Positions 3,062 through 56,878 of a stretch of DNA of 64,000 nucleotides are shown piece after piece. Both the position numbers and the translations under genes were made by a program. Position 1 is the first letter of the stretch, and each line of letters begins with the position of its first letter. This stretch comes from Patescibacteria group bacterium (lineage in GTDB: Bacteria; Patescibacteriota; Patescibacteriia; CAIXNZ01): contig JAQTMG010000003.1 of the NCBI GenBank assembly GCA_028714455.1, positions 39,834 to 103,833 on the forward strand, read 5' to 3'. A model generated the notes under the pieces. The model was not told the DNA's origin and did not search any database. It saw only the letters and a list, made by a program, of their open reading frames with translations.

Positions 3062-4387
3062 TCAAGTTGGATTTAAAATCTCCTTCAAAACTTCTCTGGC
3101 AACTTTTCTGTCATCCCAGGGCATTACTTTGCCATTTGATTTAATACTCTGCTCTGTCCCCTTACCAGTGATTAAAACTAAATCCCCTGTTTGCGCCATT
3201 AGACAAGCTTTCTTGATGGCTAATCGCCTATCTGGCTCTTTAATCAAATCAACTTTTTCCGTCTTACCACCCTCTTTTGCGCCAACCGCGATTTCATTAA
3301 GAATTTTTTCAGTCGGCTCATCATAAGAATCCTCGTCGGTCAAAATCGTAATGTCCGCATTTTGGGCAGAAATTTTTCCCAGAACCGGTCTCTTGGCGTG
3401 ATCGCGCACGCCGCCAGCCGAACCAAAGACATGGATAATTCTTTTTATGGGAAACATTTTTAAAGTTTTAAAAAGCGTGCCAAAGGAAACGGGATCGTGC
3501 GCGTAATCGACCAGCACGAAAAATTTCTGCCCCTCATCAATCACCTCCATTCTGCCGGGGATACCAATCACCTCGGCCATAGCGTCTCGGCATTGCACTA
3601 GACTTAGGCCAAAATGCAGACCGACGGTAACCGCGGCCAGCGAGTTATAAACGTTAAACCGGCCAATCAACTTAGTTTTGAACTCAATGCCCGAGACCAT
3701 GAATTCCGTGCCATTGGCCGCCGGCTTCACATCGCCTGCCAAAACTAATTTGGTTTGAACAAGCTGCCTGTTAAACGTAATGCCGTAGCCATATTTTTTG
3801 TCAGCGCTAAAATCATGAAAATATTCCCAACTAGGATCGTCAAGATTTACAATAATCGCTTTTTCAATTTCTTGGCCGTTAATTTTTTTCTTGGAAAATT
3901 TTGAAAGCGAGGCGAAAAGTTCGCCCTTGGCTTTTTGATAATTTTCAAACGAGCCGTGAGCCTCAATATGTTCGGGTGTTAAATTAGTAAAAACCGCCAC
4001 GTCATAATTAATGCCCCAGTTGCGATTTTGCATTATGCCTTCAGACGAGGTTTCAACCACCGCATATTTGCAACCCGCCTTGACCATCTCGCGCAGCATT
4101 TTTTGCAGTTTTGTTCTGCCCTGCATGGTCATGTGAGTGGTGTTAATCCATTCTTTGTCAGCAATTTTAAAATTGGCCGTGGTCATCAAACCGACTTTCT
4201 CATTATTCGCGCTCAAAATTTGGTAAATTAAATTGCTAGTCGTTGTTTTGCCATTAGTACCGGTTACGCCGATCACGATCAGTTCTTTTGAAGGAAAGCC
4301 ATAAACCAGATTCGCCAAAATCGCCCAAAGCTTGTGGTATTGGTTAACTAAATTTTTCGGTATTAATTTTTTGATTAAAGACTTCAT
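3062..4387 (-). CDS. murE: Mur ligase, most consistent with MurE (UDP-MurNAc-L-Ala-D-Glu:diamino acid ligase)
   Basis: GVTGTNGKTTT P-loop. MurE-like central motifs are present (TTANFKI..TTHMT..ETSSEG..VFTNLTPEHIEAHGSFENY). Near the C-terminus a LTDEDSYDEP segment resembles the MurE DNPR region. Confidence 0.7.
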   Translation of the reverse strand: MKSLIKKLIPKNLVNQYHKLWAILANLVYGFPSKELIVIGVTGTNGKTTTSNLIYQILSANNEKVGLMTTANFKIADKEWINTTHMTMQGRTKLQKMLREMVKAGCKYAVVETSSEGIMQNRNWGINYDVAVFTNLTPEHIEAHGSFENYQKAKGELFASLSKFSKKKINGQEIEKAIIVNLDDPSWEYFHDFSADKKYGYGITFNRQLVQTKLVLAGDVKPAANGTEFMVSGIEFKTKLIGRFNVYNSLAAVTVGLHFGLSLVQCRDAMAEVIGIPGRMEVIDEGQKFFVLVDYAHDPVSFGTLFKTLKMFPIKRIIHVFGSAGGVRDHAKRPVLGKISAQNADITILTDEDSYDEPTEKILNEIAVGAKEGGKTEKVDLIKEPDRRLAIKKACLMAQTGDLVLITGKGTEQSIKSNGKVMPWDDRKVAREVLKEILNPT

Positions 4388-5029: not shown

Positions 5030-5104
5030 CGCGGGGTAGAGCAGTGGCAGCTCGCCGGGCCCATAACCCGGAGGTCGCGGGTTCAAATCCCGCCCCCGCA
5101 ACCA
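5030..5104 (+). tRNA. Initiator tRNA-fMet (anticodon CAT)
   Basis: Cloverleaf with a C1:A72 mismatch, three G-C pairs in the anticodon stem, loop CCCATAA, T-arm GCGGG-TTCAAAT-CCCGC and an encoded CCA. It is near-identical in architecture to E. coli tRNA-fMet. Confidence 0.85.
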
Positions 5105-5307
5105 GATTCATGGTGGGGGTTTCCGCCGTAGGCGGACCCGCCTCTGGCGGGCAAATCCCGCCCCCGCAACCAGATTCATGGTGGGGGTTTCCGCCGTAGG
5201 CGGACCCGCCTCTGGCGGGCAAATCCCGCCCCCGCAACCAGATTCCTGGTGGGGGTTTCCGCCGTAGGCGGACCCGCCTCTGGCGGGCAAATCCCGCCCC
5301 CGCAACA
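5105..5307 (+). repeat. Three tandem 68-nt direct repeats, each ending in the last 20 nt of tRNA-fMet (AAATCCCGCCCCCGCAACCA)
   Basis: Units at 5105-5172, 5173-5240 and 5241-5307. The third has an A>C change and lacks the CCA. Each unit is GATTCATGGTGGGGGTTTCCGCCGTAGGCGGACCCGCCTCTGGCGGGC plus the tRNA 3' end. Confidence 0.9.
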
Positions 5308-5327
5308 ATGAAAATTAAAATTATTTA

Positions 5328-5400
5328 GATCCGGTAGCTCAGTTGGTAGAGCACCTGCCTTTTAAGCAGGGGGTCCTGGGTTCAATCCCCAGCCGGATCA
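5328..5400 (+). tRNA. tRNA-Lys (anticodon TTT)
   Basis: GATCCGG acceptor, GCTC/GAGC D-stem, anticodon loop CTTTTAA, T-arm CTGGG-TTCAATC-CCCAG; no CCA encoded. Confidence 0.9.
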
Positions 5401-5606
5401 TAGGTTAATGGCTTGCCAAGACTGGCAAGCTTTTTGCGACCCCCTGCTTTATCAAAGCTACACAAAGAAGTCCTGCCTGCCCGCCGTAACGAAGTGAAGG
5501 CGGGGGTTCAATCCCCAGCCGGATCATAGGTTAATAGCTTGCCAAGACTGGCAAGCTTTTTGCGACCCCCTGCTTTATCAAAGCTACACAAAGAAGTCCT
5601 GCCTGC
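5401..5606 (+). repeat. Duplicated ~100-nt segment (tRNA-Lys 3' half + 80-nt downstream unit containing a terminator hairpin)
   Basis: The 80-nt unit TAGGTTAAT(G/A)GCTTGCCAAGACTGGCAAGCTTTTTGCGACCCCCTGCTTTATCAAAGCTACACAAAGAAGTCCTGCCTGCC appears at 5401-5480 and 5527-5606. Between the two copies a second copy of the tRNA 3' end (GGGGTTCAATCCCCAGCCGGATCA, 5503-5526) is preceded by a CCCGCC..GGCGGG hairpin. Confidence 0.85.
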
Positions 5607-5637
5607 CTCTAGCGAAGGCAGACCGGATTATTATAAG

Positions 5638-10025: not shown

Positions 10026-11189
10026 ATGCAATGGCCCAAAATCGCCTTAACAACCATTGGCTGCAAGCTTAATCAATCAGAAATTCAAGATTTAAAGCAG
10101 GATCTAATTGATGCCGGTTATCTTATTGTTGATAAAAATGAACCGCACGATTTGCATATTATCAACGCCTGTTCAATTACTCACGGCGCCGAACAAATCA
10201 CCCGCCAAAAAATCCGCGAAGCTAAATCTAAAAATCCAAAACTTCAAATATTTGTCATGGGTTGTTTGAATCAACCAATTCCAGAAATCAATAAAGTTTT
10301 CAAAAACAAAAAGGAGGTTTTAAAATTTATCAAAAAAATATATAAAAATACCCAAATTCGTAATTCAAAATTCATAATTCATAATTCCAGAACAAGAGTT
10401 TTGATCAAGGTCCAAGACGGCTGTAACTTCAATTGTGCCTATTGCATCATTACCAAATTCCGCGGCCAATCAAAATCAATTTCTCCAAATAAAATAATCT
10501 CTCAAATCAAACAAAAAGAAAAACAAGGCGCCAAAGAAATCGTTTTAGTCGGCGTTAATATTTTGCTTTATAAATTTGGCACAACCGATTTAGCCGCGCT
10601 GGTTAAAAGAATTTTAGATGAAACAAAAATCCCACGCATCAGATTCAGCTCGCTTGACCCTCGCCTCGTCAATCCCACTTTCCTCAATTTATTTAGGAAT
10701 AAACGCATCTGCCCACATTTGCATTTATCTTTGCAATCCGGCTCCAATAAAATTCTCAAATTAATGAACCGCCATTATACCGCGCAAAGATATTTACAAA
10801 TTATCAAAACCGCCAGAAAAATAAATCCGCTGACTTCAATAACAACGGATATAATTATTGGCTTCCCCGGCGAAACAGAAAAAGATTTTCAAGATACCTT
10901 AAATCTGGTCAAAAAAATAGATTTTCTTAAAATTCACATCTTCCCCTATTCAGCAAGAGGCGCGAGTAAAGAGCAAGGGCAAATTAACGAGAGCGTTAAA
11001 AAACAAAGATTTATAAAATTAAATAAACTCGCCGAAAAACAAAGCCAAAAATTTCTCAAAAAAATGAAAGACAAAATCATGCCCGTGCTTTTTGAACAAA
11101 AAGAAACCGGCTACACGCCAAATTACATTTTGGTCAAAAAGAAAACAAAACAAAATCTGGCGAATAAAATTATAAATGTGAAAATATAA
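10026..11189 (+). CDS. Radical-SAM methylthiotransferase (MiaB/RimO/MtaB family; MtaB-like)
   Basis: N-terminal MTTase domain (IALTTIGCKLNQSE) and a radical-SAM CxxxCxxC motif (GCNFNCAYCII). The tract IRNSKFIIHNS, encoded by an AATTCAT repeat, looks like an insertion. Confidence 0.75.
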   Translation: MQWPKIALTTIGCKLNQSEIQDLKQDLIDAGYLIVDKNEPHDLHIINACSITHGAEQITRQKIREAKSKNPKLQIFVMGCLNQPIPEINKVFKNKKEVLKFIKKIYKNTQIRNSKFIIHNSRTRVLIKVQDGCNFNCAYCIITKFRGQSKSISPNKIISQIKQKEKQGAKEIVLVGVNILLYKFGTTDLAALVKRILDETKIPRIRFSSLDPRLVNPTFLNLFRNKRICPHLHLSLQSGSNKILKLMNRHYTAQRYLQIIKTARKINPLTSITTDIIIGFPGETEKDFQDTLNLVKKIDFLKIHIFPYSARGASKEQGQINESVKKQRFIKLNKLAEKQSQKFLKKMKDKIMPVLFEQKETGYTPNYILVKKKTKQNLANKIINVKI

Positions 11190-11191
11190 AA

Positions 11192-11322
11192 GGCGAAAAC
11201 GGACATTATCGTCGTTGTAGAGACGGGGCATACCCTGTCTCTACGTCATGTATCATATGACGATAATGTAGAGACGCGGTGCACCGCGTCTCTACGGCGT
11301 TTTACGCCGTCCGTTTTCGCCC
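11192..11322. repeat. Structured palindromic repeat (REP/MITE-like), copy 1, double-core
   Basis: Outer 13-bp inverted repeat GGCGAAAACGGAC..GTCCGTTTTCGCC enclosing two 28-bp palindromes: GTAGAGACGGGGCATACCCTGTCTCTAC (11217-11244) and GTAGAGACGCGGTGCACCGCGTCTCTAC (11268-11295). Confidence 0.85.
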
Positions 11323-11405
11323 AAATAACTTTTATAAAAGAAAAACCCCGCACCTTTTGCTAGCAAAAGGTGAGGGGCAAAGTGTACAAGGTACAAGAAT
11401 CAAAG

Positions 11406-11966
11406 TTACGAAACTACGGAACGAGCGCGCAGAATGTCACCGGCACTGCCAGGGTCGCAGCAGCCGATGTACAATCCGCCACCGCCCCATCCCACGCCCG
11501 GCACACCACCATCGGAATCGCAGGAGCCAGAACAGAGTGTCACGTTGTTGATATCAAGATGCTTTCCTGCCGGCCGGTTCCAGTTATAGAAGAGCTCCAT
11601 GACAAGGCGCTCTTCCAGGGTGATGCCGTTGATGCCGCGTTTCTCGCACTCTTTGGCAGAGAGGTTCTTGTTTTCCTTGTCTGCCTCAATTCGGTCTCGC
11701 AGCCAGATGGCATAGGTCTTGTCGGTCTTGCGTACCGAAATAACGGTGTTAAGGTCATCTCTGTACTTCCATGACGTGAAGTGCTCTTTGCACTTATCAA
11801 AGAGACGGTTTGCGGTCAGGCCTGCGGCCATGATGAGTAGCCAGTTGAAGCCCTTCCGCTTTCCGGGCAGAACGATCTTTGAGAAGTCGGCCTTGATGCC
11901 GAAAACTTCTTTGTAGAAACGCTGCCATTCGGCGATCAACTTACTATATTTCCCCTTTTCCGGCAT
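11406..11966 (-). CDS. Hypothetical protein with Gly/Cys-rich C-terminus, in a GC-rich region (likely horizontally acquired)
   Basis: GGAGGG RBS before ATG 11966. Local GC content is far above neighbours. The C-terminus reads CSGSCDSDGGVPGVGWGGGGLYIGCCDPGS. A terminator hairpin GCACCTTTTGC-TAG-CAAAAGGTG lies at 11346-11375. Confidence 0.5.
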   Translation of the reverse strand: MPEKGKYSKLIAEWQRFYKEVFGIKADFSKIVLPGKRKGFNWLLIMAAGLTANRLFDKCKEHFTSWKYRDDLNTVISVRKTDKTYAIWLRDRIEADKENKNLSAKECEKRGINGITLEERLVMELFYNWNRPAGKHLDINNVTLCSGSCDSDGGVPGVGWGGGGLYIGCCDPGSAGDILRARSVVS

Positions 11967-16925: not shown

Positions 16926-17366
16926 TCAACGCCGGAACGAAAGAGAAATACGCGACCAAATTCCTGTGTGATATTTAAAGGGCGTATTGAAAAAGAACAG
17001 CTCCCCCTCTCCTTGATTGGAAGATGAATCGTAACTGCCGAGATAAAAGATATATGAATACGGGCCCAGGGCTACTTTTGTTCCCTCAAAAATATCACCC
17101 AAGATATAGAGAACAACGAGATCATGATTTACGATACTTCTGTCTTCGGCTCTGGAAATGTGCATCATGGAGTTCGAGATACAATGAATCTCGGCAATGG
17201 CAGAAATAACTTTGCCTGATTTAAATTTTAAGGAAAACGATTGAGCTACCCGATGGGCAAAGGCAGAATACAAATTGTTATGATCCGGACCGCTGGTAAT
17301 TTGTACCTTGCACAATCGAAAGCCATTGACCTCCCTTTGGTGGTTTACCAGATCTTTTCGTTTCAT
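16926..17366 (-). CDS. Hypothetical protein (moderately GC-rich, C-terminal aromatic-rich end)
   Basis: AGGAGG RBS before ATG 17366 (MKRKDLVNHQ..). The ORF track's longer form to 17444 lacks an RBS. Confidence 0.4.
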   Translation of the reverse strand: MKRKDLVNHQREVNGFRLCKVQITSGPDHNNLYSAFAHRVAQSFSLKFKSGKVISAIAEIHCISNSMMHISRAEDRSIVNHDLVVLYILGDIFEGTKVALGPYSYIFYLGSYDSSSNQGEGELFFFNTPFKYHTGIWSRISLSFRR

Positions 17367-17506
17367 GTCTTCCTCCTTGCGCCAAACACGGGCTTTTGCG
17401 CGTGTTTGGGGCGTCTTGAAATGAACATTTACTTTGTCTGTCAAAGTAATCCGCCACCTTGGTCGGATAGTTCAAGTTAACAAAAAAATGGTGTTTTTGT
17501 CAATAG

Positions 17507-17590
17507 GGGCGAAAACGCTTTAACGAAAGTAGAGACGCGGTGCACCGCGTCTCTACAATATAAAATAATTTTTTATAAGCGTTTTCGCCC
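17507..17590. repeat. Structured palindromic repeat, copy 2
   Basis: GGGGCGAAAACGC..GCGTTTTCGCCC outer IR around core GTAGAGACGCGGTGCACCGCGTCTCTAC (17529-17556). Confidence 0.85.
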
Positions 17591-17604: not shown

Positions 17605-18651
17605 CTAATATATCTTATCCAGCAAAGTTAAAATAATACCAAACACGGCCGTGACCATGCCAATGAGCCAGAACCTCATAACCACTTTGCATTCTGGCCA
17701 GCCAATTGCCTCCAGGTGATGATGAATCGGCGCTGACAAAAAAACTTTTCTCTTAAAAATTTTCTTGGAGCACATCTGAATAATAACGGAAAGTGATTCA
17801 ATGACAAAAGGCAAGCAAATTATAGGCAAGATAAGCGCTGAATTTGTGAGCATGGCAATCACGCCCAGAGTCACGCCCAGCCCCATCGAACCAGTGTCTC
17901 CCATAAAAAAACGAGCTGGCGGAATATTGAACCATAAAAAAGCCAAAAGCGCGCCGACAACCACGCCGCAAAAAGTCGCCAAATCAAATCTGCCTTGAAC
18001 AAAAGCAATCACGCCAAAAGTCGCGAAAGCCGCGGCCAGTAAGCCGCCGGCCAGACCATCCAGGCCGTCAGTCTCGTTGACGGAAAAGGACGTGGCTACG
18101 ATGACAATCATAAAAATTGGGATGTACCACCAGCCGACTTGAAAATCGCCGATAAAAGGTATTCTCATCAGGTCCCAATCAAGTTTGAAAAAAAACCAGA
18201 AAGCGCCGATTAGGGCAATCGCCGAATAAATCAAAAGTTTGTATCTCAATTGCAGTCCGCCGCCTTTTGGTCCCACCCCCCTGACATTTAAAATGTCGTC
18301 AAAAAGTCCCACCAGTGCTGAAGCAACCAAAGCTCCAAGCGGCAAAAATGTCTGCGAGCGAGTCAAAAAATTAAATTTATCAAAAATCGGAATATCCGTG
18401 AATCTCGCCAGATAAAAAGCGCCCAATGATAGTACCAGGACCGTCGCCCAGACCAAAATTCCTCCCATGGTCGGCGTACCGGCCTTGTGCGCGTGCAGGT
18501 TGGACATAATGGGCGCACTCTCGCCGTCACGAATATTTTTCCCCAATTTGTATTTGTACAAAAAATTAGTCAAAAGCGGAGTCCAGACCATGGCCAGCAC
18601 AAACGAAAGAGTCGTGAAGAGAAAAATTTTGATGATGACTAGCGTGTCCAT
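17605..18651 (-). CDS. mraY: Phospho-N-acetylmuramoyl-pentapeptide transferase MraY
   Basis: 348 aa, polytopic, with MraY conserved blocks (KAGTPTMGG, NETDGLDGLA, GDTGSMGLG). Confidence 0.9.
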   Translation of the reverse strand: MDTLVIIKIFLFTTLSFVLAMVWTPLLTNFLYKYKLGKNIRDGESAPIMSNLHAHKAGTPTMGGILVWATVLVLSLGAFYLARFTDIPIFDKFNFLTRSQTFLPLGALVASALVGLFDDILNVRGVGPKGGGLQLRYKLLIYSAIALIGAFWFFFKLDWDLMRIPFIGDFQVGWWYIPIFMIVIVATSFSVNETDGLDGLAGGLLAAAFATFGVIAFVQGRFDLATFCGVVVGALLAFLWFNIPPARFFMGDTGSMGLGVTLGVIAMLTNSALILPIICLPFVIESLSVIIQMCSKKIFKRKVFLSAPIHHHLEAIGWPECKVVMRFWLIGMVTAVFGIILTLLDKIY

Positions 18652-37794: not shown

Positions 37795-38460
37795 TTATTT
37801 TTTAATATCGTCAGTTAGTCGGGGATAATTCAAACTGGTATATTGCCAATTTTCAGGCAAGCCATGCTTCAAATGATTATAAACTGTATAATTATAATGA
37901 TGATCCCAGTCCCTTTGCTTTTTTAAATGATTTTGATGAAAGCGGATAAAGTGGTCGTAAAAAGATAATTGCCATTTAAATTTTGGGTAAGGACTGCTAT
38001 TGCCAAATTTTTTTATAAATTCTTCCTTATAATGTTCAAGGTTTATTTTCCTCTCATTAAAATCATCAAAATTCCCATTAAATAAATTAAGCAACCTCAT
38101 CCTCATCCTTCGTAGGCGAAACGACGTCGTTTCGCCTACGAAGAGCGGTGAATTTTGATTAATCGTATATCCCATCACAATATTAACATTGCGTGAAAAA
38201 TTTTCTTTTAACGATTTGATTATTTTTGAAATATTATATTGGTTATTAGGTTCAATTATTAAATTAATATGATCATAAATTATGGAAAAGGCATACAGCT
38301 TAAATCCCTTTAATTGTTTACAAATCCCTAAATTCTCAATAAACAAGCTGCAAAAAATCGTCTCTTTAAAATATGGGAAATTATTCTTCGTCTTGATTAC
38401 GATGTAATATATAGCACCTGGAAAATATATCCGCTTAGAATAATTTTTGTGCAATTTCAT
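37795..38460 (-). CDS. IS200/IS605-family Y1 transposase-like protein (RAYT-like, HuH degenerate) carrying an in-frame palindromic insertion
   Basis: N-terminal YYIVIKTKNNFPYF, a degenerate HuH (DHINLI) and a C-terminal SFYDHFIR..Y motif shared with the paralogs at 53983 and 56300. A 38-bp perfect palindrome CTTCGTAGGCGAAACGACG/CGTCGTTTCGCCTACGAAG at 38111-38148 is translated in-frame (SFRLRRMRMR). Confidence 0.5.
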   Translation of the reverse strand: MKLHKNYSKRIYFPGAIYYIVIKTKNNFPYFKETIFCSLFIENLGICKQLKGFKLYAFSIIYDHINLIIEPNNQYNISKIIKSLKENFSRNVNIVMGYTINQNSPLFVGETTSFRLRRMRMRLLNLFNGNFDDFNERKINLEHYKEEFIKKFGNSSPYPKFKWQLSFYDHFIRFHQNHLKKQRDWDHHYNYTVYNHLKHGLPENWQYTSLNYPRLTDDIKK

Positions 38461-41857: not shown

Positions 41858-43912
41858 ATGGCAAAGATAATAAAACTAATTAGCTTTTTTTGTTTACTTT
41901 TAGCGGTTTTGATCAATTTTGACTGGTTAAAAATTCCAGCCTTAAGTATAATTTTAGGCTTGGTTTATTTTTTAATCTTTGGCTATCTGCTGGGGAAAAA
42001 TATCTTCAAAAGCCAGGAAGTTAGTTTCCAAACAATTCTCGGCATTTTCTCATTGATTTCTCTCTACTCCCTACTGGGAGCTGTCATCTATTATCTCTAC
42101 CAACTTGATACTTTAGCTATCAACGTTTTGCTCGTCATAATCTCTGGCTGTATTCTCTATCCAGAAATTGTAACTGAAAGCAAAATGCCAGAAATAAAAT
42201 GGCCAAAAACAAACCCGGCTTCAATTATTTTAACTATCACCTACCTTATAATCACCGCTGCCAGCTTTATCGTTCTTTGGCATTCGCAAACCACCGAAGC
42301 CATTTTTACTCCCTGGCAGGTCATACCCAGAGAATTTTTCGCGCTTTATGTTTTGGCCACAGTCAATTTATTACTAATAATTTTTAGAAATAAAAATTTT
42401 CTCACCCCGTTTTTGATTGTTATGCATTACTTTCTGACAATCAGCGTGGCACTCATAATTTACAAGCTCGGCTATGGCTTTGATCCTTTCATTCACCAGG
42501 CCACGGAAAAAGTAATTTTTGACAAAGGTCTAATTTTGCCAAAACCATTTTATTATCTTGGACAATATTCTCTGGTTGTTTTCCTGGCTAAATTTTTACA
42601 ACAATCGGTTGATTTAATTGACAAACTCCTGCTGCCCATCTTACTTTCAGTATTTTTGCCTTACACGATTTACAAGAGTTTAAAAAAAACTTTTGACTGG
42701 CAAAAAAGCATTACTTTAATTTTGGGATTAAGTTTCCTGCTTCTTCCTTTCGGCCTTTTTATCGCCACCACGCCGCAAGCTCTGGCGGGATTTTATTGTC
42801 TGGTAATTATTTTCTTGTCTTTTTTATATTTTCAGAATAAACAAATTCCTCTGGCCGCTCTTATTTTATTGGCTCTGACGACCATTGCCATCCATCCAAT
42901 CGCCGGCCTGCCGATTTTAATCTACCTTATTATTCTGTATCTTGTAAAAAACTTAAATAATCTCGCGGTGAAAATAATCTTGCCGATTTTCTGCGCGCTC
43001 TCGGCTTTTATTTTGCCGATTGCCTTGCTTTTCAATTCATTTATCTCAATAAACAAAGTCAGCTGGCTGCCAAATTCAGTCAGCTTCATTGATTGGCCCA
43101 GCATCTTTATGACTCAATTCAGATTTTTTCCTGATCTGGCTTATCTTTACCGAAATTTTATCTATTGGCTTTTCATTCTGATTGCCCTAATCACCTTCGC
43201 CTATTTAATTAAAACGAAAAGGGCCAAAATCTTTGTCGCGTCACTCATAACTTTTGCCATTCTGGTTATCAACGCTTTTTTACTAAATTTTATTAAAGTT
43301 AATTACATTATTAATTACGAACAAGGCGATTTTAGTCGACGAGTCTGGCAAATAGCTTTTTATTTTCTGCTACCGATTGTTTGTTATGGACTTTATTTCT
43401 TCATTCAAAAAGCCTGGCAAAAATCCGCTGTCTATAAAATATTTTTAATCGTTTCTCTTACCCTTTCTCTCACTCTTTGCTTATATTTAAGTTATCCGCG
43501 CTTTGATGACTATGACAACAGCAAGTTTATCAATGTCAGCGCCGCGGATTTTCAAGCCGTTCAATTCATCGACAAAGACAGCGCCGGACAAAATTACATT
43601 GTGCTGGTCAACCAGATGACCAGTGCCGCCGCCCTGCAAACATTTGGCTTCACAAATTATTACAACAATAATTATTTTTACCCGATTCCAACCGGCGGCG
43701 ATCTTTATAAATATTATGAAAAAATGATTTACACCGAGACCTCAAAAAAAACAATGGTCGCGGCCATGGATTTTGCCAAAGTAAAACTCGCCTATTTTGT
43801 CTTGCCGACTTATCTTAAAACATTTACACAAATCGACCAGAAAGCCGAGAGCAGCGCCGATATGGTCTATAACATCGGCGATAAGATCTATATTTACAAG
43901 TACTCAAAATAA
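41858..43912 (+). CDS. Large polytopic membrane protein (possible GT-C-like glycosyltransferase / YfhO-like)
   Basis: 684 aa with more than 12 TM helices, divergent from the preceding GT-C-like gene. Confidence 0.4.
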   Translation: MAKIIKLISFFCLLLAVLINFDWLKIPALSIILGLVYFLIFGYLLGKNIFKSQEVSFQTILGIFSLISLYSLLGAVIYYLYQLDTLAINVLLVIISGCILYPEIVTESKMPEIKWPKTNPASIILTITYLIITAASFIVLWHSQTTEAIFTPWQVIPREFFALYVLATVNLLLIIFRNKNFLTPFLIVMHYFLTISVALIIYKLGYGFDPFIHQATEKVIFDKGLILPKPFYYLGQYSLVVFLAKFLQQSVDLIDKLLLPILLSVFLPYTIYKSLKKTFDWQKSITLILGLSFLLLPFGLFIATTPQALAGFYCLVIIFLSFLYFQNKQIPLAALILLALTTIAIHPIAGLPILIYLIILYLVKNLNNLAVKIILPIFCALSAFILPIALLFNSFISINKVSWLPNSVSFIDWPSIFMTQFRFFPDLAYLYRNFIYWLFILIALITFAYLIKTKRAKIFVASLITFAILVINAFLLNFIKVNYIINYEQGDFSRRVWQIAFYFLLPIVCYGLYFFIQKAWQKSAVYKIFLIVSLTLSLTLCLYLSYPRFDDYDNSKFINVSAADFQAVQFIDKDSAGQNYIVLVNQMTSAAALQTFGFTNYYNNNYFYPIPTGGDLYKYYEKMIYTETSKKTMVAAMDFAKVKLAYFVLPTYLKTFTQIDQKAESSADMVYNIGDKIYIYKYSK

Positions 43913-43999
43913 GGGGCGAAAACGCTTTCACGTAAAAAACGCTGCCGTAGAGACAGGGTATACCCTGTCTCTACTTTTTATTCAAGGCGTTTTCGCCCC
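43913..43999. repeat. Structured palindromic repeat, copy 3
   Basis: GGGGCGAAAACGC..GCGTTTTCGCCCC outer IR around core GTAGAGACAGGGTATACCCTGTCTCTAC (43947-43974). Confidence 0.85.
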
Positions 44000-44030
44000 A
44001 AAGAAAAAGCCCCATCAATTGATAGGGCTT
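43999..44030 (-). terminator. Rho-independent terminator of the RT gene
   Basis: GCCCTATCAATTGATGGGGC hairpin followed by TTTTTCTTT on the minus strand, abutting the RT stop codon. Confidence 0.55.
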
Positions 44031-45256
44031 TTAATATTTCCCAATATTTTTTACGTAAGTTCCTGCTTCGCCCGAATAACGAATCAAAAAAACGTCATAA
44101 AGAACCGCGTCTACCTCTTGCCACAAATTCTCGGCCGTTTCTCTAATAATGAAACACTGCATGCCGCTTAGCTTAAGATACAACGGCCAAATTTTTGTCT
44201 CAAAATCATCCTTTTGTTCAAGCGCTTTTTTTAGGTTAAAAATGGTCAGGCGCAAACGCAACTTAAACTTCCGAGTATTGCGCACCTGGCCATCAACCAC
44301 ATTCAGTCCTAACGTGTGCAGAATATGCCCTCGTCTGGCAAAATATGATTTATGCAAATAGTAGCGCTGATAATAGGCTCCTTTATTTTGCCACCAACCA
44401 TCTGGGTCAGGCGCCTCTTTCAGTTCATAACCCCTTTTAGCGATACGAAAAACCGCTGAAATAACGGGCGCATGCCACACAATGCAACCGCGATATTTCT
44501 CAATATCTTCCTGACCCGCTGGTTTCACAAAGTAATCGTCAGCGGAGGGATCATCTGGCCGTTCTTCGCCGCGCTCAATGTGTCTTTTTTTTGTTTCCGG
44601 CCAAAATTCTGGCGCTGTGATAAAAATGTTGTCCGCGTAACGTACGTAAGTACCCCTGATGTTCTTGGCTAGCTCGGAAAGCTCGTAATCAAAGGGTTCA
44701 AAACAAAAATCAAACAAGCGCGGGCTGGTTGGCGCGCCTTGTGGCAAACCAAAAGCCGGTAGCCCCTTTTTCTTTTGATTAAACCAGGTCGTCAAACAGG
44801 TCAAATAATAAGAGGCGTAATAACCGTACTTTTTTGACTTGAAAAAATTGAAGACCGCGCGACCGCTTGTCGAAGGAAAAGCATCCTTCACGTCAGTCGT
44901 AAAAACCGCCTGGTCTGCCTTAGCAATAGCCAATGCCGCCTCTTTGACTCCACCGCCAGAAAATCCATAGACATTTCTATGACGGTCCAGCGGCTCAAGA
45001 ATATTTTTGTTGACAGCCCGCTGAATTGTCATCAAATCAGGGTGCGGAATCTGTAAAATTCTTCTGCCGCCGCTTCTTTTAGCAATTGTAATGGTTGAAT
45101 AAAGCCATGGACTCCTGACAATTGCCGCCCACAAAATTCTACGGAATTTTTCGAAATCATTAAAAGGATAATTCAGTTCAGCGAACAAATACCAGGCTGC
45201 TTTTCTGCCTGATTCCCTTAATAAGGGATTTTTAATGCGCTCACGCGATTTCAACA
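44031..45256 (-). CDS. Stand-alone reverse transcriptase (retron/DRT-like; motif C = YADN)
   Basis: RT motifs in order: 1/2 RRILQIPHPDLMTIQRAV, A FTTDVKDAF, B' GLPQGAPTSPRLFD, C YVRYADNIF. The proposed start is TTG 45256, 8 nt after AGGAGG; the ORF track's ATG 45383 would add 42 aa lacking an RBS. GC content is elevated. No maturase, endonuclease or other fused domain was recognised. Confidence 0.75.
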
Positions 45257-45294
45257 ATATTATCACCTCCTTTCCATGTTTTTTGTTTTCAAAG

Positions 45295-45695
45295 AAAAGG
45301 GAGGGGTAAATTCCCCTCCCACCGCTGGTTACTCGCGAATCGCAAGCTGTGCGTGTACCGATCAAGAACCGGGTGATTTGCATATTGCCGTCAGAATTCT
45401 GACAGCCCCTTTCGGCTATTTTAGGATCTCTTAGGGTTCCGGCAATAAAGCTAACTGTCTTGATCTAATTTCGGATTTTAGGGTTAGGGAGGGGTGCAAG
45501 ATTTATACATTTACTTCAAGTTTTGGTTATCCCCTCTCCTTCTAATTAAACCGAATTACCGAGCCAGTTACCTTCGCCGAAAATTATCTAGAGAAGGATA
45601 CGCAGTTTATGTACCTAACTCAAGTTTCGGCTAATCCTTCTCTTTATCCTATTTGGCCTCAAAGCTCGCTAACCAGCGAATGATAATACTTTAGT
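45295..45695 (-). ncRNA. Candidate RT-associated structured ncRNA (about 380 nt) directly upstream of and co-oriented with the RT
   Basis: Minus-strand promoter-like TTGACT-17 nt-TAAAGT at 45716-45688. Two paralogous long hairpins have conserved loops (AAACTTGA..GTA.ATAAA) and different, individually complementary stems (GAGAAGGAT/ATCCTTCTC versus GGAGAGGGG/CCCCTCC). There is a 14-bp palindrome GTCAGAATTCTGAC. The 3' end is a GC-rich hairpin GGGAGGGG-AATTTA-CCCCTCCC followed by TTTTCTTTG just before the RT RBS. Confidence 0.4.
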
Positions 45696-45766
45696 TAAAA
45701 TTTATTAAAAAGTCAAGAAAAAAAGAACCTACATTTACGGGGCTCTTTTAATTTATTTTAACCTAT

Positions 45767-50760: not shown

Positions 50761-50817
50761 ATAGTTTTAAAAAGGTAGAGACGGCTCTACCCTTTTATTT
50801 ATAATATTTTTCAGGTG

Positions 50818-51970: not shown

Positions 51971-52396
51971 TTAATTTTTGGCTAACTTTAAATCTTTTTT
52001 GAACGTCCAATATTTATTGGCGAAAAAATTCCAAAATAAACCCAGGGCGATGGCCACAAGCTTGGCCAGAAGGTCAAAAACGTTCAGATATTTTACGCTA
52101 AAATAAAAGATGGCGTTGTACAAAATAAAGTAAAAAATCGCTATCAAAAAAAATTTCAGATACTGGCTGGCCAGCTTATTTTCAAAATTGCCAAACGTCC
52201 AGTACTTATTCGCGAAAAAACTGAAAGTCATGGCCACCAGCACCGAGACGATGTTGGCGTAAAGAAAATACAAACCCAGCGCTCGGCTAAAAAATAAATA
52301 GACACCATAATCGATAATGGTGTTAAGGATTCCGACCAGGCAAAATTTTAAAAACTGCCTGACGATTTCTTTTTTTGTATATTTTTCAATCATCAA
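51971..52396 (-). CDS. GtrA-family membrane protein
   Basis: 141 aa with four TM helices and GtrA-like motifs (FLKFCLVGILNTIIDYGVY, KYWTF repeated twice). Confidence 0.65.
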   Translation of the reverse strand: MMIEKYTKKEIVRQFLKFCLVGILNTIIDYGVYLFFSRALGLYFLYANIVSVLVAMTFSFFANKYWTFGNFENKLASQYLKFFLIAIFYFILYNAIFYFSVKYLNVFDLLAKLVAIALGLFWNFFANKYWTFKKDLKLAKN

Positions 52397-53982
52397 TTTA
52401 AATTGGCTGCTGAAAAAAGACCCTTATCGGCGTCAATCGAGGTTGCGCCGGCGATTTCAGCGGCCAGATCATAAGCCGCCGAGCTGTCAATCGGAGCGCC
52501 GCTTTGATAATTGGCGAAAAATGAATCCGGCACGTCCTTAACTTTATTTTGCCAAGCAGATCCGAAAATCGAGAGTGCCAGGTCCTCTGATTTAACCCAG
52601 CGCAAAACCCCGCCGCGAGAAACCGCATAGACTTTGGGATCGGTGGCGATTTTCACCAAACTGCCTGGCTTGAGATTCACCACGCCGCCAAATGGAATCT
52701 CCGCCAAACTCGCGTCAGATATTTTTTGCACGCCGCTAAAATCAAGATACCAGCTTAGATAGGTCTGTTTATCTGGAAAGGCGTAGCGCTTGCCGTCAGC
52801 GCCATGATAATAAACCGTATCTTGAGACCCTTTGATGAGCGGATTGGCTACCGGCACGACGTTCAGAGCTTGAAAAATTTTAACCGGATTAATCAGCCCG
52901 TGACCCATTTCACCGGCAAATTGCGGACTGTTCGCGTCCAGGTTATCGGCATTATTTAAAATCAAGTCCATTATTTCCTGGCCGTTTAAACTCGGCTTAA
53001 ACGATTTAATAAGCGCCGCGAGTCCCGAGACGACCGGTGCCGCTAGCGAAGTGCCTGAATATCCCCCGCCGAAATAAGCGCTAAACGAGGCGTTGTTCGC
53101 GTCAAATAAAAGCGTGCCCCAAAAATCCTCGCCTGGCGCTATCACGTCAATGCAACTTGAACCAAAATTGGAAAAATTGGCGAGCCGGTCGTTTTTATCG
53201 CTGGCGCCCACGCCGAGCACGATGTTCTCGCCGTTAGTCCCCTGGAAACAGACCGGATACATTTTGATAGAATCCAGATTGATTGAATGGCCGAAAGAAC
53301 TTTCATTACCGGCGGCCGCTATAACCAGAATGTTATTTATATAAGCCCTCTCCACGGCTTTTTCCAGCGAAGCGTCGTAAGTGTCGCCGACAAAACTTAG
53401 ATTTATAATACTCGCCCCGTTATCAATGGCGTAATTGACGGCTCTGACCACGTCCGAAGTATCGCCCGCGCCGTTTTCATTCAAGACGCGCAGCGGCATA
53501 ATTTTTACGGTCCAGGCCAGGCCGACCGTCCCAAAACCATTATTGCCGACGGCGCCGATTACTCCGGCAATCAGAGTGCCGTGCAAGATCGCCTCCTTGG
53601 TACAGGTGGAAGCGGCCAGACAGTTCTCGCCAAATTTCGGCGTCGGATTATTATTATTTTCAATAAAATCCCAACCGTTGAGATCGTCAATATAGCCATT
53701 ATGATCATTGTCAATTCCGTCATTGGCAATTTCCTTTTGATTTACCCATATATTGTCATGCAAATCGGGGTGTGAAATGTCCACGCCAGAGTCAATCACG
53801 GCCACGATAACACTGCCGCTGCCCGTTTCCTGACCCCAGACTTTTGGCATCTGTAAATCGCTTAAATACCACTGTTTGGAATAATCGGAATCGTTTGGCA
53901 CCAATTCCGCGGCCAAACAAAAATTGCCCAAAGAAAACAGGGTCATAAAAATAATTAACTTTAAAATATTTTTATTTTTCAT
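52393..53982 (-). CDS. Secreted subtilisin-like serine protease (S8) with C-terminal shared ~115-aa domain
   Basis: Signal peptide; catalytic Asp, His and Ser regions (DSGVDISHPDL, HGTLIAGVIGAVGN, GTSLAAPVVSGLAAL); C-terminal domain homologous to those in 54576..56273 and 57099..61037. Confidence 0.85.
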   Translation of the reverse strand: MKNKNILKLIIFMTLFSLGNFCLAAELVPNDSDYSKQWYLSDLQMPKVWGQETGSGSVIVAVIDSGVDISHPDLHDNIWVNQKEIANDGIDNDHNGYIDDLNGWDFIENNNNPTPKFGENCLAASTCTKEAILHGTLIAGVIGAVGNNGFGTVGLAWTVKIMPLRVLNENGAGDTSDVVRAVNYAIDNGASIINLSFVGDTYDASLEKAVERAYINNILVIAAAGNESSFGHSINLDSIKMYPVCFQGTNGENIVLGVGASDKNDRLANFSNFGSSCIDVIAPGEDFWGTLLFDANNASFSAYFGGGYSGTSLAAPVVSGLAALIKSFKPSLNGQEIMDLILNNADNLDANSPQFAGEMGHGLINPVKIFQALNVVPVANPLIKGSQDTVYYHGADGKRYAFPDKQTYLSWYLDFSGVQKISDASLAEIPFGGVVNLKPGSLVKIATDPKVYAVSRGGVLRWVKSEDLALSIFGSAWQNKVKDVPDSFFANYQSGAPIDSSAAYDLAAEIAGATSIDADKGLFSAANLN

Positions 53983-54564
53983 TTAATATTCAATGAAATC
54001 TGTTTTAAAAATTGATTGATCACCGATTTCATAATTTCGCCAGGAAGAATAGGGATATTTTGAAATATCTTCAACTAAGCGAGCAGAAATCGGATTGTTG
54101 TGGATATAATTTAATTTTTCGTTAAATTTCTTGCCAGAATAGATATTAAAGTCGTAAAAACTGGGCTGCCAGATTCTCCTCATCCTCCGGGTAGCCAAGG
54201 CCCCTGCGCCTTGGCTTTTTAAGGGCAAGGCGTATGAGCCTTGCCTACCTATAAAAGAGATGGGTGGGTCTTGCCGACCCGACATGGAATCAAATAAATA
54301 TTCATTAATCAACCTGGAACTATATCCTTTCACCCCGTGCATTATTCTGGAAATGGTTAATTTCGGATTTTCAAAATAAACCAACAAATGGACATGGTCA
54401 GGCATAATACAATACCCATATATCTTCAAATTAAATTTTTTCCGATAATAATCGAGGTTATCTAAAAACAACCGACAGCATTTATCATCTGTAAAAAATT
54501 TTTGTCTGCCGTGTGTATTGGCCGTTACAAAATGGATATGACCCAAATCATTAAATCTGTGCAT
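53983..54564 (-). CDS. IS200/IS605-family Y1 transposase-like protein (RAYT-like) with in-frame structured insertion
   Basis: HuH motif MPDHVHLLV and C-terminal YDFNIY..NYIHNNPISARL (RAYT-like). A roughly 110-bp insert at 54178-54290 contains hairpins CCAAGGC..GCCTTGG and GGCAAGGC..GCCTTGCC and is translated in-frame (RRMRRIWQ..). Confidence 0.6.
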   Translation of the reverse strand: MHRFNDLGHIHFVTANTHGRQKFFTDDKCCRLFLDNLDYYRKKFNLKIYGYCIMPDHVHLLVYFENPKLTISRIMHGVKGYSSRLINEYLFDSMSGRQDPPISFIGRQGSYALPLKSQGAGALATRRMRRIWQPSFYDFNIYSGKKFNEKLNYIHNNPISARLVEDISKYPYSSWRNYEIGDQSIFKTDFIEY

Positions 54565-54575
54565 CTAATTTCCGT

Positions 54576-56273
54576 CTACGTGTGCGGCACAATTACAATC
54601 TTATCCTCGCTAATCGAAGTCGCGTTCGCCGTTGCTGTCAGCGGACTGAAATCTCCCACTAACGCGATGTCCGCGCCAACATTATAGTTCACGAAAAACG
54701 CGTCGGCCACGTCTTGGACTAAAGTGGCCCAATTATCGCCATAAAGAGCTTTGGCCAGCGCTTCGGTTTTTATCCAGCGCAAAGTACCGTGGGCATCAAC
54801 CGCGTACACTTTCGGATCAGTTGTGATTTTTATCAATTTTACACCCGGCTTATACGTCACATTGCCGCCGATGGAGATGGCCGCGAGTTGCGCGTCGGTA
54901 ATCGTCTTGACTGTTGAAAAATCCGGATACCAGGTCAAATACGTATTGAGCGTGGGAAAAACATAGCGCTTGCCGTCAGTGGCATAATAATAAACAGCCG
55001 GACCCGATGCCTTAATCAAATCGCCGTAAGAAATATTGGCCCCGACCAGTCCGGGCGCGTTAATCGTAATTGAGAGAGTGCCGATAACCTGATTATCCAC
55101 TTTAACTGATACTGTCTTAACGCCCAAAGAGGTGGATCTTGCTTCAAAAATTATTTTGCCGTTCACGTCTGAATTATTATTAGGAATAGTGATGATAACT
55201 CCCGAACTGGCGTCGACCACGATTTGTTTATTGGGAAGTGGCTGCCCCATGGAATCCTTAATGGTCACGGTAATGGTTGATTTATCTAAGCCATCATTGG
55301 CCAAAACGATTTTATCGGCCGCGACCGAGGAATTGGAGACCGAGAATGTCTGCGCGTGCGCGCTGACTGTAATCGAGCCTGTCTGCGTAAAATTTCCCCA
55401 GCCATCATGGGCCTGCAAACTGATGGTGTGCGTGCCGTCGCTGATGTTTTCCCAGTCGTAACGCCAGGTGTAAAAATTAACATCCATTTCCTGCACTGGA
55501 TATTCCTGACCGTCAATAAAGATATTGAAATCGCGGATATAACTGCCGCCCTCGTCTCTGGCCATGCCCTGGATCATTAAGCTGTTGGTGTTTAAAATCT
55601 GGCCGTCAAATAAATTGGTAATAACCAGTTTGGGTCCGAACATATCAATGGAATAGGTGCTGACTACCTGGCTGTTCGCGTTTGTCACATTGTCATCGGT
55701 CGGTCCGTTATTTTTGGCAGCCGTGAAAACGCCGAAATCGCCCACGTCAAAAAGGCCATTGGCATTATTGTCCGTAAGAATCGGAATCTGCATCAAAATC
55801 GTGGCCGTACTCGTGTAGTCGGAGAATGTTTCTACGGAGACAAAAAATCTTTTGCCAATGCTTGCGCTTTCATTCAAATTTTGAATATACCAAGATTCAT
55901 AAGTCGTGGTGTAATTAAAATTGCCGATTACCCGGTCAACACCCATGCCTTGAAATCCGGCTGGCCCGTCATCGGCCCAGAGCGTCATGTATTTTATATG
56001 GCTTAAATAATTGGCCGTGCCCAGATTTTTCAAGCCGAGAGCGTTAAGCGTGTCTGTGCCGCTGATATTAAGCGTGAAATCCATAATCAGGCCGTCAAAA
56101 GTCGCTCGATAAAAAGTCGCGTAAGGCGCCTGCAGGTTAATAACTGAACTGGTGGTAAAGGCCAGAGATGGCTGCGCGCCCAAAATCGTCAGCGCCAAAA
56201 TCGCGATGATGATAAAAATTTTTCTTCCGCCAAAGGCAGACCCGCCTCTGACGGGCATAATGTTTTTTTGCAT
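54576..56273 (-). CDS. Membrane-anchored surface protein with Ig-like (Big) domains and C-terminal shared ~115-aa domain
   Basis: N-terminal TM/signal, Big-like beta-sandwich repeats and a C-terminal block AVYYYATDGKRYVFP..DPKVYAV..LRWIKTE. Confidence 0.5.
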   Translation of the reverse strand: MQKNIMPVRGGSAFGGRKIFIIIAILALTILGAQPSLAFTTSSVINLQAPYATFYRATFDGLIMDFTLNISGTDTLNALGLKNLGTANYLSHIKYMTLWADDGPAGFQGMGVDRVIGNFNYTTTYESWYIQNLNESASIGKRFFVSVETFSDYTSTATILMQIPILTDNNANGLFDVGDFGVFTAAKNNGPTDDNVTNANSQVVSTYSIDMFGPKLVITNLFDGQILNTNSLMIQGMARDEGGSYIRDFNIFIDGQEYPVQEMDVNFYTWRYDWENISDGTHTISLQAHDGWGNFTQTGSITVSAHAQTFSVSNSSVAADKIVLANDGLDKSTITVTIKDSMGQPLPNKQIVVDASSGVIITIPNNNSDVNGKIIFEARSTSLGVKTVSVKVDNQVIGTLSITINAPGLVGANISYGDLIKASGPAVYYYATDGKRYVFPTLNTYLTWYPDFSTVKTITDAQLAAISIGGNVTYKPGVKLIKITTDPKVYAVDAHGTLRWIKTEALAKALYGDNWATLVQDVADAFFVNYNVGADIALVGDFSPLTATANATSISEDKIVIVPHT

Positions 56274-56299: not shown

Positions 56300-56878
56300 T
56301 TAATTTAAAATGTTAAATTCAACCGCCTCTTTGGGATTATCACGATCAAATTCCCAATTTACCGGATTATTGGCAATATATCCTTTTATCCGCGCGTAAT
56401 CTTCATCGTTTTTGATAATGTGTTCGTAATAATTATCTTGCCATTTGAAATCAAGGTTATTTTCATGGCATTTGCGCGTAACGGCACCTTTAAATGTATT
56501 AACGACAGACGATAATGATTTTGGTTTGACGTGGCCAAATTTATTCCGTGTAGAGACAGGGTATACCCTGTCTCTACAATTTTTTGCAAAATCATTTTCG
56601 TCGCATTCAATTTCAATTATCCCATGAACATGATTTGGCATGATTATCCAATCGTCCAATCTTATATTATTAAAATGCTTTGGTATCTCCAACCAACAAT
56701 CAAAAACGACTTTCCCAACCTCCGATAAATAAACATTATTATCCTTAATTTCACCCAAATCGTATATTCTGTCTTTGGTGCAAATTGTCACGAAATAAAA
56801 ACCTCCTTTGGCATAATCCCATTCCATCAAACGCATACTCGCCACGCGATATTTATTTTTAAAATATTCGTCCCCCAT
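56300..56878 (-). CDS. IS200/IS605-family Y1 transposase-like protein (RAYT-like) carrying a copy of the GTAGAGAC palindromic repeat in-frame
   Basis: HuH motif MPNHVHGII and C-terminal WQDNYYEHIIKNDEDYARIKGYIANNP (RAYT-like). The core GTAGAGACAGGGTATACCCTGTCTCTAC lies at 56549-56576 inside the ORF, translated RDRVYPVSTR. Confidence 0.6.
   Translation of the reverse strand: MGDEYFKNKYRVASMRLMEWDYAKGGFYFVTICTKDRIYDLGEIKDNNVYLSEVGKVVFDCWLEIPKHFNNIRLDDWIIMPNHVHGIIEIECDENDFAKNCRDRVYPVSTRNKFGHVKPKSLSSVVNTFKGAVTRKCHENNLDFKWQDNYYEHIIKNDEDYARIKGYIANNPVNWEFDRDNPKEAVEFNILN
56549..56576. repeat. Structured palindromic repeat core, copy 4 (intragenic)
   Basis: Identical to the core of copy 3; no outer GGGGCGAAAACG inverted repeat. 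Confidence 0.85.

Follow-up and report, generated by a model that had tools for sequence, protein, structure and literature searches.

Putative double-foot GTAG REPs nested in a second palindrome, and their presumed RAYT, in a Patescibacteria genome

To our knowledge, REP-RAYT systems have so far been studied almost only in Proteobacteria. One well-defined group of the enzymes, TnpA_REP subclass 2.4 (Quentin et al. 2018, PMC6006769), is the equivalent of RAYT group 4 (Bertels et al. 2017, PMC5581495). Its members harbor the motifs NH[IFV]H, WQ and YIxNNP within a length of around 194 amino acids, and the REPs associated with them are of the "long" or "double foot" type, with a 5' GT[AG]G and a 3' C[TC]AC (PMC6006769). 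The presence of in-frame REPs inside tnpA_REP itself, between HuH and Y, has been described as a striking trait found in this subclass only (PMC6006769). GTAG-tagged REPs have also been brought together as a superfamily (Di Nocera, De Gregorio & Rocco 2013, PMC3733652); the portion of that account available to us reports none from Bacteroidetes or CPR, does not contain the string GTAGAG, and lists no family that matches the present repeats by sequence.

The repeats considered here are found in a stretch of 64,000 nucleotides from a Patescibacteria group bacterium, the whole of which is referred to below as the window. We regard it as probable, with good though not complete confidence, that the cores of these repeats are double-foot GTAG REPs recognised by a transposase encoded in the same window, RAYT-A, and that they are here usually nested in a second palindrome and in part terminator-like. 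An ultra-small CPR bacterium with a reduced genome houses three RAYT genes, each with an in-frame GTAG...CTAC palindrome, together with nested REP units of tightly constrained architecture. Among the papers that literature searches listed, none deals with RAYTs in Patescibacteria or CPR, and the literature available to us has no description of the arm-framed composite architecture; searches with the core 8-mers returned primer coincidences only.

Repeat cores and composite units in the window

The core has the form GTAGAGAC-N12-GTCTCTAC. Five exact matches are present in the window against none in 100 dinucleotide-preserving shuffles and, together with the three units that bear outer arms, they establish as real the repeat family that the original prediction had proposed. 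The cores lie at 11217-11244, 11268-11295, 17529-17556, 43947-43974 and 56550-56577, and all five carry GTAG...CTAC feet. Each is 28 nt in length and folds into a 12-bp stem with a 4-nt loop. The GTAGAGAC 8-mer itself is matched 11 times in the window, where 0.25 matches are expected, and outside the cores it is found only at 50775. Three centres occur, GGGGCATACCCT, GCGGTGCACCGC and AGGGTATACCCT. All had been put forward as palindromes in their own right, and this applies to the latter two, which are perfect; in GGGGCATACCCT, however, there is one G.T pair and a loop CATA, and the palindrome is imperfect. Four of the five cores are extragenic and sit at gene 3' ends. The remaining, intragenic core had been placed at 56549-56576, one base away from its actual position.

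The extragenic cores are found within three composite units that are bounded by outer inverted repeats built on GGCGAAAACG / CGTTTTCGCC. Arms of this kind do surround all three units, as had been claimed, but the exact consensus as originally written fits the third copy only. Unit 1 (11192-11321) extends from arm GGCGAAAACGGAC at 11192-11204 to arm GTCCGTTTTCGCC at 11309-11321, and begins 2 nt past the stop codon of a MiaB-like gene (10026..11189). It contains two cores, the first (11217-11244) with centre GGGGCATACCCT and the second (11268-11295) with centre GCGGTGCACCGC, and in its interior ATTATCGTC/GACGATAAT form a further, inner stem and GGCGTTTTACGCC a small hairpin. Unit 2 (17507-17590; arms GGGCGAAAACGCTT / AAGCGTTTTCGCCC) has a single core at 17529-17556 with centre GCGGTGCACCGC. 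A GT4/MraY-like gene on the minus strand (17605..18651) has its stop codon 14 nt upstream of the unit, which in turn lies directly upstream of an outward TTGACA. Unit 3 (43913-43999; arms GGGGCGAAAACGC / GCGTTTTCGCCCC) has its core at 43947-43974 with centre AGGGTATACCCT, and begins directly after the stop codon of the plus-strand gene 41858..43912, between convergent genes. With stop-codon gaps of 2, 14 and 0 nt, the intergenic copies are indeed located at gene 3' ends, as first proposed.

On either strand, units 1-3 each fold into a single long nested structure, far more stable than their shuffles, with z values from -8.6 to -13.4, the extreme being unit 1 at -86 kcal/mol (z -13.4). A Logan contig of the same organism has its end inside unit 1, as is expected because repeats break assemblies. 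The arms of the single-core units are without GTAG feet, and for this reason, and since two cores are found in unit 1 only, an identity of the units as REPINs was considered and rejected. Nor are the copies a local duplication, the alternative that had been raised against the family, because they have different flanks and are spread over 45 kb, and because the orthologous site of a genome only about 75% identical also has copy 2.

The sole GTAGAGAC 8-mer outside the cores forms part of a short hairpin, GGTAGAGACGGCTCTACC, at 50774-50791, with A and T runs on its flanks. A shorter relative of the family had been predicted at 50772-50791, and a hairpin with the 8-mer is what the sequence contains there. 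It is compatible with a core that has lost its 12 central nucleotides, and is plausibly such a deletion derivative, which now resembles a terminator, with the flanking runs of a bidirectional one.

The transposase genes and their embedded palindromes

The window contains three Y1_Tnp genes, at 56300..56878, 53983..54564 and 37795..38460, as the original prediction had stated. The first of these, RAYT-A, is on the minus strand and encodes a Y1 HUH transposase of 192 amino acids (MPNHVHGII ... KWQDNYYEH ... YIANNP), in which IIMPNHVHGIIEIECDENDFAKNCRDRVYPVSTRNKFGHVKPKSLSS is followed by KWQDNYYEHII and then by GYIANNP. That the gene housing the intragenic core is a RAYT itself had been overlooked, as had the fact that such a placement is a hallmark known from the literature. 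The embedded REP occupies 56508-56602 on the minus strand; its core (56550-56577) is in frame, codes for RDRVYPVST, and is located after the HUH motif and ahead of the catalytic Tyr. This copy had been described as core only, which is incorrect: it has 16-nt arms of its own, GACGATAATGATTTTG at 56508-56523 and CAAAATCATTTTCGTC at 56587-56602, that are 94% complementary. One of these arms codes for the conserved PKSLSS, and the other for DENDF within a variable insert. The centre of the embedded core, AGGGTATACCCT, is identical to that of the core in unit 3.

RAYT-A scores 63.2 bits (E = 2e-17) against the NCBIfam model NF047646, REP_Tyr_transpos, for which the curated cut-off is 80, and 25.7 bits against Pfam Y1_Tnp (cut-off 23), in the C-terminal half only; the match is split by the insert. 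E. coli TnpA_REP (4ER8) is the sole relative among PDB entries, with very low sequence identity (24 bits), and the alignment consists of two blocks around a 34-aa insert that includes the hairpin-coded RDRVYPVST. Among the best 120 of 1771 significant homologues, the HUH motif is in most cases followed by the hairpin peptide, read in either of the two stop-free frames, as RDxxxxVST or VETxxxxSL, and sometimes in 2-5 copies, which indicates a conserved or repeatedly inserted DNA hairpin in place of a constraint at the level of the protein. For annotation, the hairpin explains the recurrence of these peptides in "transposase" proteins as well as assembly breaks at the repeats. The best homologues of the Y1 proteins of the window come from Patescibacteria/Parcubacteria.

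All the features of subclass 2.4 are found in RAYT-A: NHVH, KWQ and YIANNP, a length of 192 amino acids, and an in-frame REP in the insert. It follows that the core is best read as a double-foot GTAG REP and RAYT-A as the enzyme presumed to be cognate to the GTAGAGAC REPs. The REP/RAYT reading of the original prediction is borne out in this way, by the GTAG foot, a covarying hairpin, the location at gene 3' ends, and a RAYT in the window with the same hairpin in frame.

The other two genes, both on the minus strand, are more divergent from this pattern. RAYT-B (53983..54564; PDHVHLL / WQ / YIHNNP) reaches 113 bits with REP_Tyr_transpos and embeds, at 54190-54249, an inverted REP pair, GTAGGCAAGGC...GCCTTGGCTAC, which is the REPIN form; no further copies of this REP type were found within the window. 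RAYT-C (37795..38460) is a divergent Y1 gene with 30.6 bits for Y1_Tnp, and its HUH motif reads DHIN. It embeds a perfect 36-nt palindrome at 38108-38143, with the core GTAGGCGAAACGAC|GTCGTTTCGCCTAC at 38112-38139, that codes for VGETTSFRL; variants in the family are VGDTPTCRL and EGDTSTCRL, and both the place and the frame of the peptide are kept across the family down to around 40% identity. In all three Y1 genes of the window, a GTAG...CTAC palindrome thus separates the HUH motif from the WQ motif, and only the RAYT-A type of REP has dispersed copies in the window.

Distribution and turnover in other genomes

A scan for GTAGAGACNNGGNNNACCNNGTCTCTAC in one genome per GTDB species, with an estimated chance expectation of about 0.3, returned at least 116 loci with the same 8-bp stem base, from at least some 90 species and more than 12 phyla. 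Represented among the matches listed are Bacteroidota, Patescibacteria, Chloroflexota, Cyanobacteria, Gammaproteobacteria, Campylobacterota and Acidobacteriota, as well as Planctomycetota, Spirochaetota, Ignavibacteria, Desulfobacterota, Myxococcota and Marinimicrobia. A RAYT surrounds the hairpin in around 10 of the at least 116 loci, and the remainder are dispersed copies. The lower 8 bp of the stem are fixed by the search pattern, which leaves four upper pairs informative for covariation; over 65 distinct cores, 99.9% of the cells in this upper stem are paired, with 78 double-sided changes compared with 17 in shuffles. In many core copies G.T wobble is confined to one strand, as expected for a hairpin that is read on a single strand. 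Among the matches listed, one centre is dominant in each genome, cores outside Patescibacteria are mostly naked, and the intergenic cores fall between tandem genes in 50 cases, convergent genes in 32 and divergent genes in 4, counts that are based on rough gene calls. Carriage by phages was also considered and rejected, as only 2 core matches were found in the viral contigs of IMG/VR.

The composite units were sought in metagenomes with a pattern of one arm and a core, GGCGAAAACG-N5-35-core, for which the estimated chance expectation is about 0.01, and 38 loci were found. A partner arm, which is not part of this pattern, is present on the far side in 37 of 43 oriented composite matches. The composites are 81-90 nt long, or 130 nt in unit 1 with its two cores, and their arms of 11-14 bp read (G)GGCGAAAACGSC. 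Covariation is seen at the inner arm ends (GCC/GGC, CT/AG, GAC/GTC), which argues for pairing and against conservation of a protein site. The two spacers sum to around 36 nt, as about 11 + 26 or about 17 + 18, and the latter type often includes the small hairpin GGCGTTTTACGCC. No target-site duplications or flanking direct repeats were found in the 33 elements examined. Where the end of a long ORF is nearby, 10 of 19 arm-framed units start between -1 and 6 nt past the stop codon, and an outward TTGAC is found within 25 nt of 11 of 33 units, which is 8 times the background (p = 2e-7). In this way the units fill the space from a stop codon to the next promoter or to the terminator of a convergent gene.

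The arms are also found around quite different interiors (L120:893, L137:6326, L139:3099 and L158:10780), and so are not simply part of the REP. Being GTAG-less and able to hold non-REP cargo, they may belong to a different element. Among the six matches that lack a partner arm are two RAYT genes (L123 and L145) in which GGCGAAAACGAAT codes for GENEF/Y, 27-30 nt before the core. Three leads on the origin of the arms were noted: the DENDF codons of RAYT-A (GACGAAAATGATTTTG) align with GGGGCGAAAACGCTTT at 12 of 16 positions, the distance from GGCGAAAACGAAT to the core in L123 and L145 matches the long-spacer geometry, and the palindrome stem of RAYT-C, GGCGAAACGAC, resembles arm GGCGAAAACGGAC. 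Each of these could be due to chance in low-complexity sequence. A dispersed REP of the GTAGGCGA type was not found in any locus examined.

Comparison with relatives had been proposed as a test for presence or absence of the copies, and such differences do occur: copies 1 and 2 are absent from one relative, L135, and copy 2 is present in another, L134. In L134, unit 2 again follows the GT4/MraY-like gene at the corresponding position. It is 84% identical to that of the window, whereas identity is 73% in the final 300 nt of the gene and 62% in the downstream sequence, and its core differs only in the loop (TGCA against TATA). Contig L135 is syntenic, with proteins 44-84% identical over nine genes; there, the site of unit 2 holds other sequence, and at the site of unit 1 the MurG-MiaB gap is 58 bp, compared with 930 bp in the window, where it accommodates unit 1 and the ORF 11406..11966. 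In pairs of loci from other lineages, the unit keeps its site and the interior is altered. In L124 and L152, with flanks around 89% identical by BLAST, the centres are GCATTGCAATGC and GCGCCATGGCGC, respectively, with eight differences that are all transitions and are mirrored in both arms; between L119 and L137 (about 90%) the centre and both spacers have been replaced, and between L118 and L151 (about 82%) the interior is inverted.

As the same sites are kept across a nucleotide divergence of around 25%, most copies must be old residents and not recent insertions. The units can accordingly be described as long-lived residents that are gained or lost now and then, while the sequence between their arms turns over actively. 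The pattern fits the vertical persistence reported for REPIN-RAYT systems in the parts of that literature available to us. A series of sites with presence, absence, swapped interior and inverted interior represents a natural experiment on REP turnover, and orthologous sites of this kind could tell in-place replacement of hairpins by RAYTs from spread to new sites.

Alternative readings, proposed mechanism and known systems

The units might instead be gene-end markers that the host selects at the RNA or DNA level, as terminators, stabilisers of mRNA 3' ends or insulators, and that are related to RAYTs only historically. This reading is compatible with the REP interpretation, and we hold it to be possible but somewhat doubtful as the explanation of the family. 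The abutment of 10 of 19 composites on a stop codon, the outward TTGAC near 11 of 33 units, the scarcity of copies between divergent genes, and the greater conservation of orthologous-site units than of their flanks (84% versus 73% and 62%) all favor it, as do runs of T, oriented with the upstream gene, after 17556-17529 on the minus strand, 43947-43974 on the plus strand and 50774-50791. With its T-tract the unit 2 core receives a terminator-like score on the minus strand, and with TTTTT the unit 3 core does so on the plus strand. The combination of a hairpin with an oriented U-tract is seen in these two cores and 50774-50791, but is absent in unit 1 and in most metagenomic composites, and no T-tract follows the arms in most composites. 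Beside copies 1 and 3 there are ordinary terminator hairpins (11351-11372 and approximately 44005-44032), and a role as terminator leaves unexplained both the wholesale interior swaps at fixed sites and the two-frame hairpin in RAYT genes. Some copies (17529-17556, 43947-43974 and 50774-50791) resemble intrinsic terminators of the upstream gene and are probably also used by the host. As a candidate Rfam RNA family the units were rejected: only tRNAs in the window reach gathering score, and permissive scans give generic long-hairpin (miRNA precursor) matches far below threshold. Of the original reading, the label "MITE-like" is the weaker part. The arms do resemble terminal inverted repeats in their behavior, arm sequence is conserved while the interior varies, overall length is constant at 81-90 nt, and alternative cargo can be held between the arms. 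The units as classical MITEs of 84-130 nt, with 13-bp arms bound by a DDE enzyme as terminal inverted repeats and the REP as a passenger, are nonetheless very improbable, principally because no target-site duplications are present in 33 elements. The scanned ORFs, which are part of the window's set, include no DDE transposase or matching IS ends, and the inner arm ends covary in the manner of paired strands, not of a protein site.

Association with retroelements was suggested by the neighboring genes, since each copy had been claimed to abut a GC-rich, foreign gene. This is correct in so far as ORF 11406..11966, which is 100% identical to PHC97_02385, belongs to a Patescibacteria-specific family, has no counterpart at the syntenic site in L135, and has homologues that adjoin bAvd and an RT in a DGR-like cassette in L156 and L157. 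It does not extend to the family as a whole, as the composites in relatives adjoin many unrelated genes. ORFs 11406..11966 and 16926..17444 have no match in Pfam, NCBIfam or PADLOC, and on comparison are unrelated to each other. The hairpins could on these grounds be retroelement accessories, such as the cruciform that lies downstream of a variable repeat and directs DGR retrohoming; the homologues beside bAvd and RT in L156 and L157, an arms-type element in L158 at the same 84-nt distance downstream of an ORF 11406..11966 homologue, and the RT gene that abuts copy 3 are in its favor. Yet a template/variable repeat pair is absent from the window, with no repeat of 11380-11700, the RT beside copy 3 is retron-like and not DGR-like, neither core nor arms are found at the corresponding position in L156 and L157, and the composites have many unrelated genes as neighbors. 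A DGR target-site hairpin was rejected for the first two of these reasons, and we consider the wider retroelement reading scarcely credible and largely refuted.

For the preferred reading, as REPs served by RAYT-A, a mechanism can be outlined from better-studied enzymes. On the model of E. coli TnpA_REP and of the TnpA of IS200/IS605 (PMC6006769, PMC3479197), RAYT-A would bind the folded hairpin together with its GTAG foot on single-stranded DNA. It would then, as in E. coli TnpA_REP and IS608, cut near the hairpin and rejoin the DNA, and cut-and-rejoin of this type would be able to spread or exchange hairpins without target duplications. The units themselves are inherited at orthologous sites, and over time their interior is replaced or inverted. 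We infer from these analogies that the REPs are mobilised by the RAYT. A more speculative proposal, which we think rather unlikely, is that the arms form a fixed frame after stop codons and the interior a cassette, which the RAYT would swap, turn round or template anew in place. In-place replacement and fold-back copying would keep the centre palindromic, and the in-frame REP of the RAYT would act as master template or autoregulatory site. Were this true, REPs would evolve mainly by site-specific replacement of cargo and less by transposition to new sites, and the rule that a RAYT carries its own REP in the coding sequence would reach beyond subclass 2.4, given that it applies to all three Y1 genes of the window.

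In comparison with known systems, the closest likeness is to subclass 2.4/RAYT group 4 (PMC6006769, PMC5581495), with which the present system shares double feet, a long hairpin, the protein motifs, the in-gene REP and a scatter over many phyla. Patescibacteria are absent from the 2018 sample (PMC6006769), however, and the dispersed copies here are enclosed by a second palindrome that is non-GTAG and has a constant overall length. The in-gene REP, called unique to that subclass (PMC6006769), is also found here in the divergent RAYT-B and RAYT-C. E. coli REP/BIME and TnpA_REP (4ER8; Messing et al. 2012, PMC3479197) have in common with the window a single-domain HUH/Tyr enzyme, the GTAG foot and an extragenic location at gene 3' ends, but the E. 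coli REPs are single-foot, have bulged stems and are organised as BIMEs, in which respects the units here differ, and REPs lie on the flanks of the E. coli RAYT (PMC3479197), whereas RAYT-A is interrupted by one.

Similarities with the REPIN-RAYT systems of Pseudomonas (Bertels & Rainey 2011, PMC3116915; RAREFAN 10.1101/2022.05.22.493013), as far as the available parts of those accounts describe them, include non-autonomous hairpins linked to a single-copy RAYT, which are passed on vertically and stay for long at orthologous sites. A REPIN nevertheless consists of two inverted GTAG REPs, whereas here one or two full palindromes lie inside non-REP arms, and the RAYT is of a different group. From the GTAG-tagged superfamily, in the portion of PMC3733652 available, come the parallels of a GTAG tag, a palindromic body, unidirectional or convergent sites and occasional intragenic copies. 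The peel-and-paste elements of the IS200/IS605 family (IS608, ISDra2) likewise combine a Y1 HUH enzyme with single-stranded hairpins and an absence of target duplication, but in the present system there is no transposase gene between two hairpin ends, and the elements are non-autonomous and 28-130 nt in length. Double-foot REPs with subclass-2.4 RAYTs, the in-gene copy included, are thus of a kind already described; new are the Patescibacteria host, the arm-framed composites with their behavior at orthologous sites, and the in-gene REP in two divergent Y1 genes.

Sequence features around the Y1 transposase genes

At its HUH motif RAYT-C, one of the Y1 transposase genes of the window (37795-38460), reads H-u-N, and the same change, in the forms DHIN, DHVN and DHFN, is found in most of its close relatives (among homologues P0233-P0291). 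The H-u-H form is kept in more distant members of the family, and the embedded palindrome is conserved despite the H-u-N change. RAYT-C could be a Y1 protein that has been domesticated and altered in its catalysis. On either side of a second of these genes, RAYT-B, lies a large gene for a secreted protein (region 52393-56273): 52393..53982 encodes an S8 peptidase, and 54576..56273 (minus strand) an Ig-domain protein. The two flanking genes have in common a 41-nt stretch of 85% identity (at 52775 and 54955, respectively).

The inverted-repeat arms that frame REP hairpins are also associated with a widespread repeat, GTCATTCNGAGCG(N)AGCGAAGAATC ... GGGATGACAAAG, which occurs in comparison loci L137 (6326-6435), L139 (3099-3208) and L121 (about 3230-3260). 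Arm-framed units carry it as cargo, and it is also found beside another composite; the same frames thus also house small palindromic elements of a second family.

Repeats next to tRNA genes and a conserved block

Downstream of each of two tRNA genes (5030-5101; 5328-5400) lie tandem repeats in which the 3' end of the tRNA recurs: three copies of a 68-nt unit (5084-5306) after the first gene and two copies of a 104-nt unit (5378-5607) after the second. These units (region 5030-5610) look as if the tRNA ends had been partly duplicated several times in series, for example as old integration scars. Part of the tRNA-adjacent repeat (5121-5289), the 33-nt sequence TTCCGCCGTAGGCGGACCCGCCTCTGGCGGGCA, contains two small CCGCC/GGCGG hairpins and recurs with 88% identity at 56225-56257, within the first codons of the Ig-domain protein gene and 43 nt downstream of a third Y1 transposase gene, RAYT-A.

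Upstream of ORF 16926..17366, and just downstream of TTGACA-17-TTAACT, lies a 20-nt block, TCCGACCAAGGTGGCGGATT (17461-17480, minus strand), that is 100% conserved in comparison locus L134 (about 3750-3770), the surrounding sequence being about 62-75% identical. The block may represent a leader or the 5' end of a small RNA ahead of this ORF, for which no homologue was detectable in L134 or in the syntenic locus L135.

Likenesses to DGRs and retrons

The protein family of ORF 11406..11966 is restricted to Patescibacteria (112 homologues, with all named matches from this group); its members are usually about 233 aa long, and the window copy is short at 186 aa. The ORF has no counterpart in L135, and no template repeat for it was found within the window. 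Since the family adjoins bAvd and a reverse transcriptase (RT) in two loci (L156, 10001-12514; L157, 240-2753), it has the appearance of a family of DGR targets.

The RT of the window itself (44031..45383, minus strand) is retron-like, matching PADLOC RT_III-A with 115 bits and the NCBIfam retron St85 model with 112 bits, the latter below its cut-off. Upstream of it is a 380-nt non-coding stretch (45384-45766) with TTGACT-17-TAAAGT, which could harbor an msr/msd RNA. The RT with this stretch would be a retron candidate from a CPR genome.
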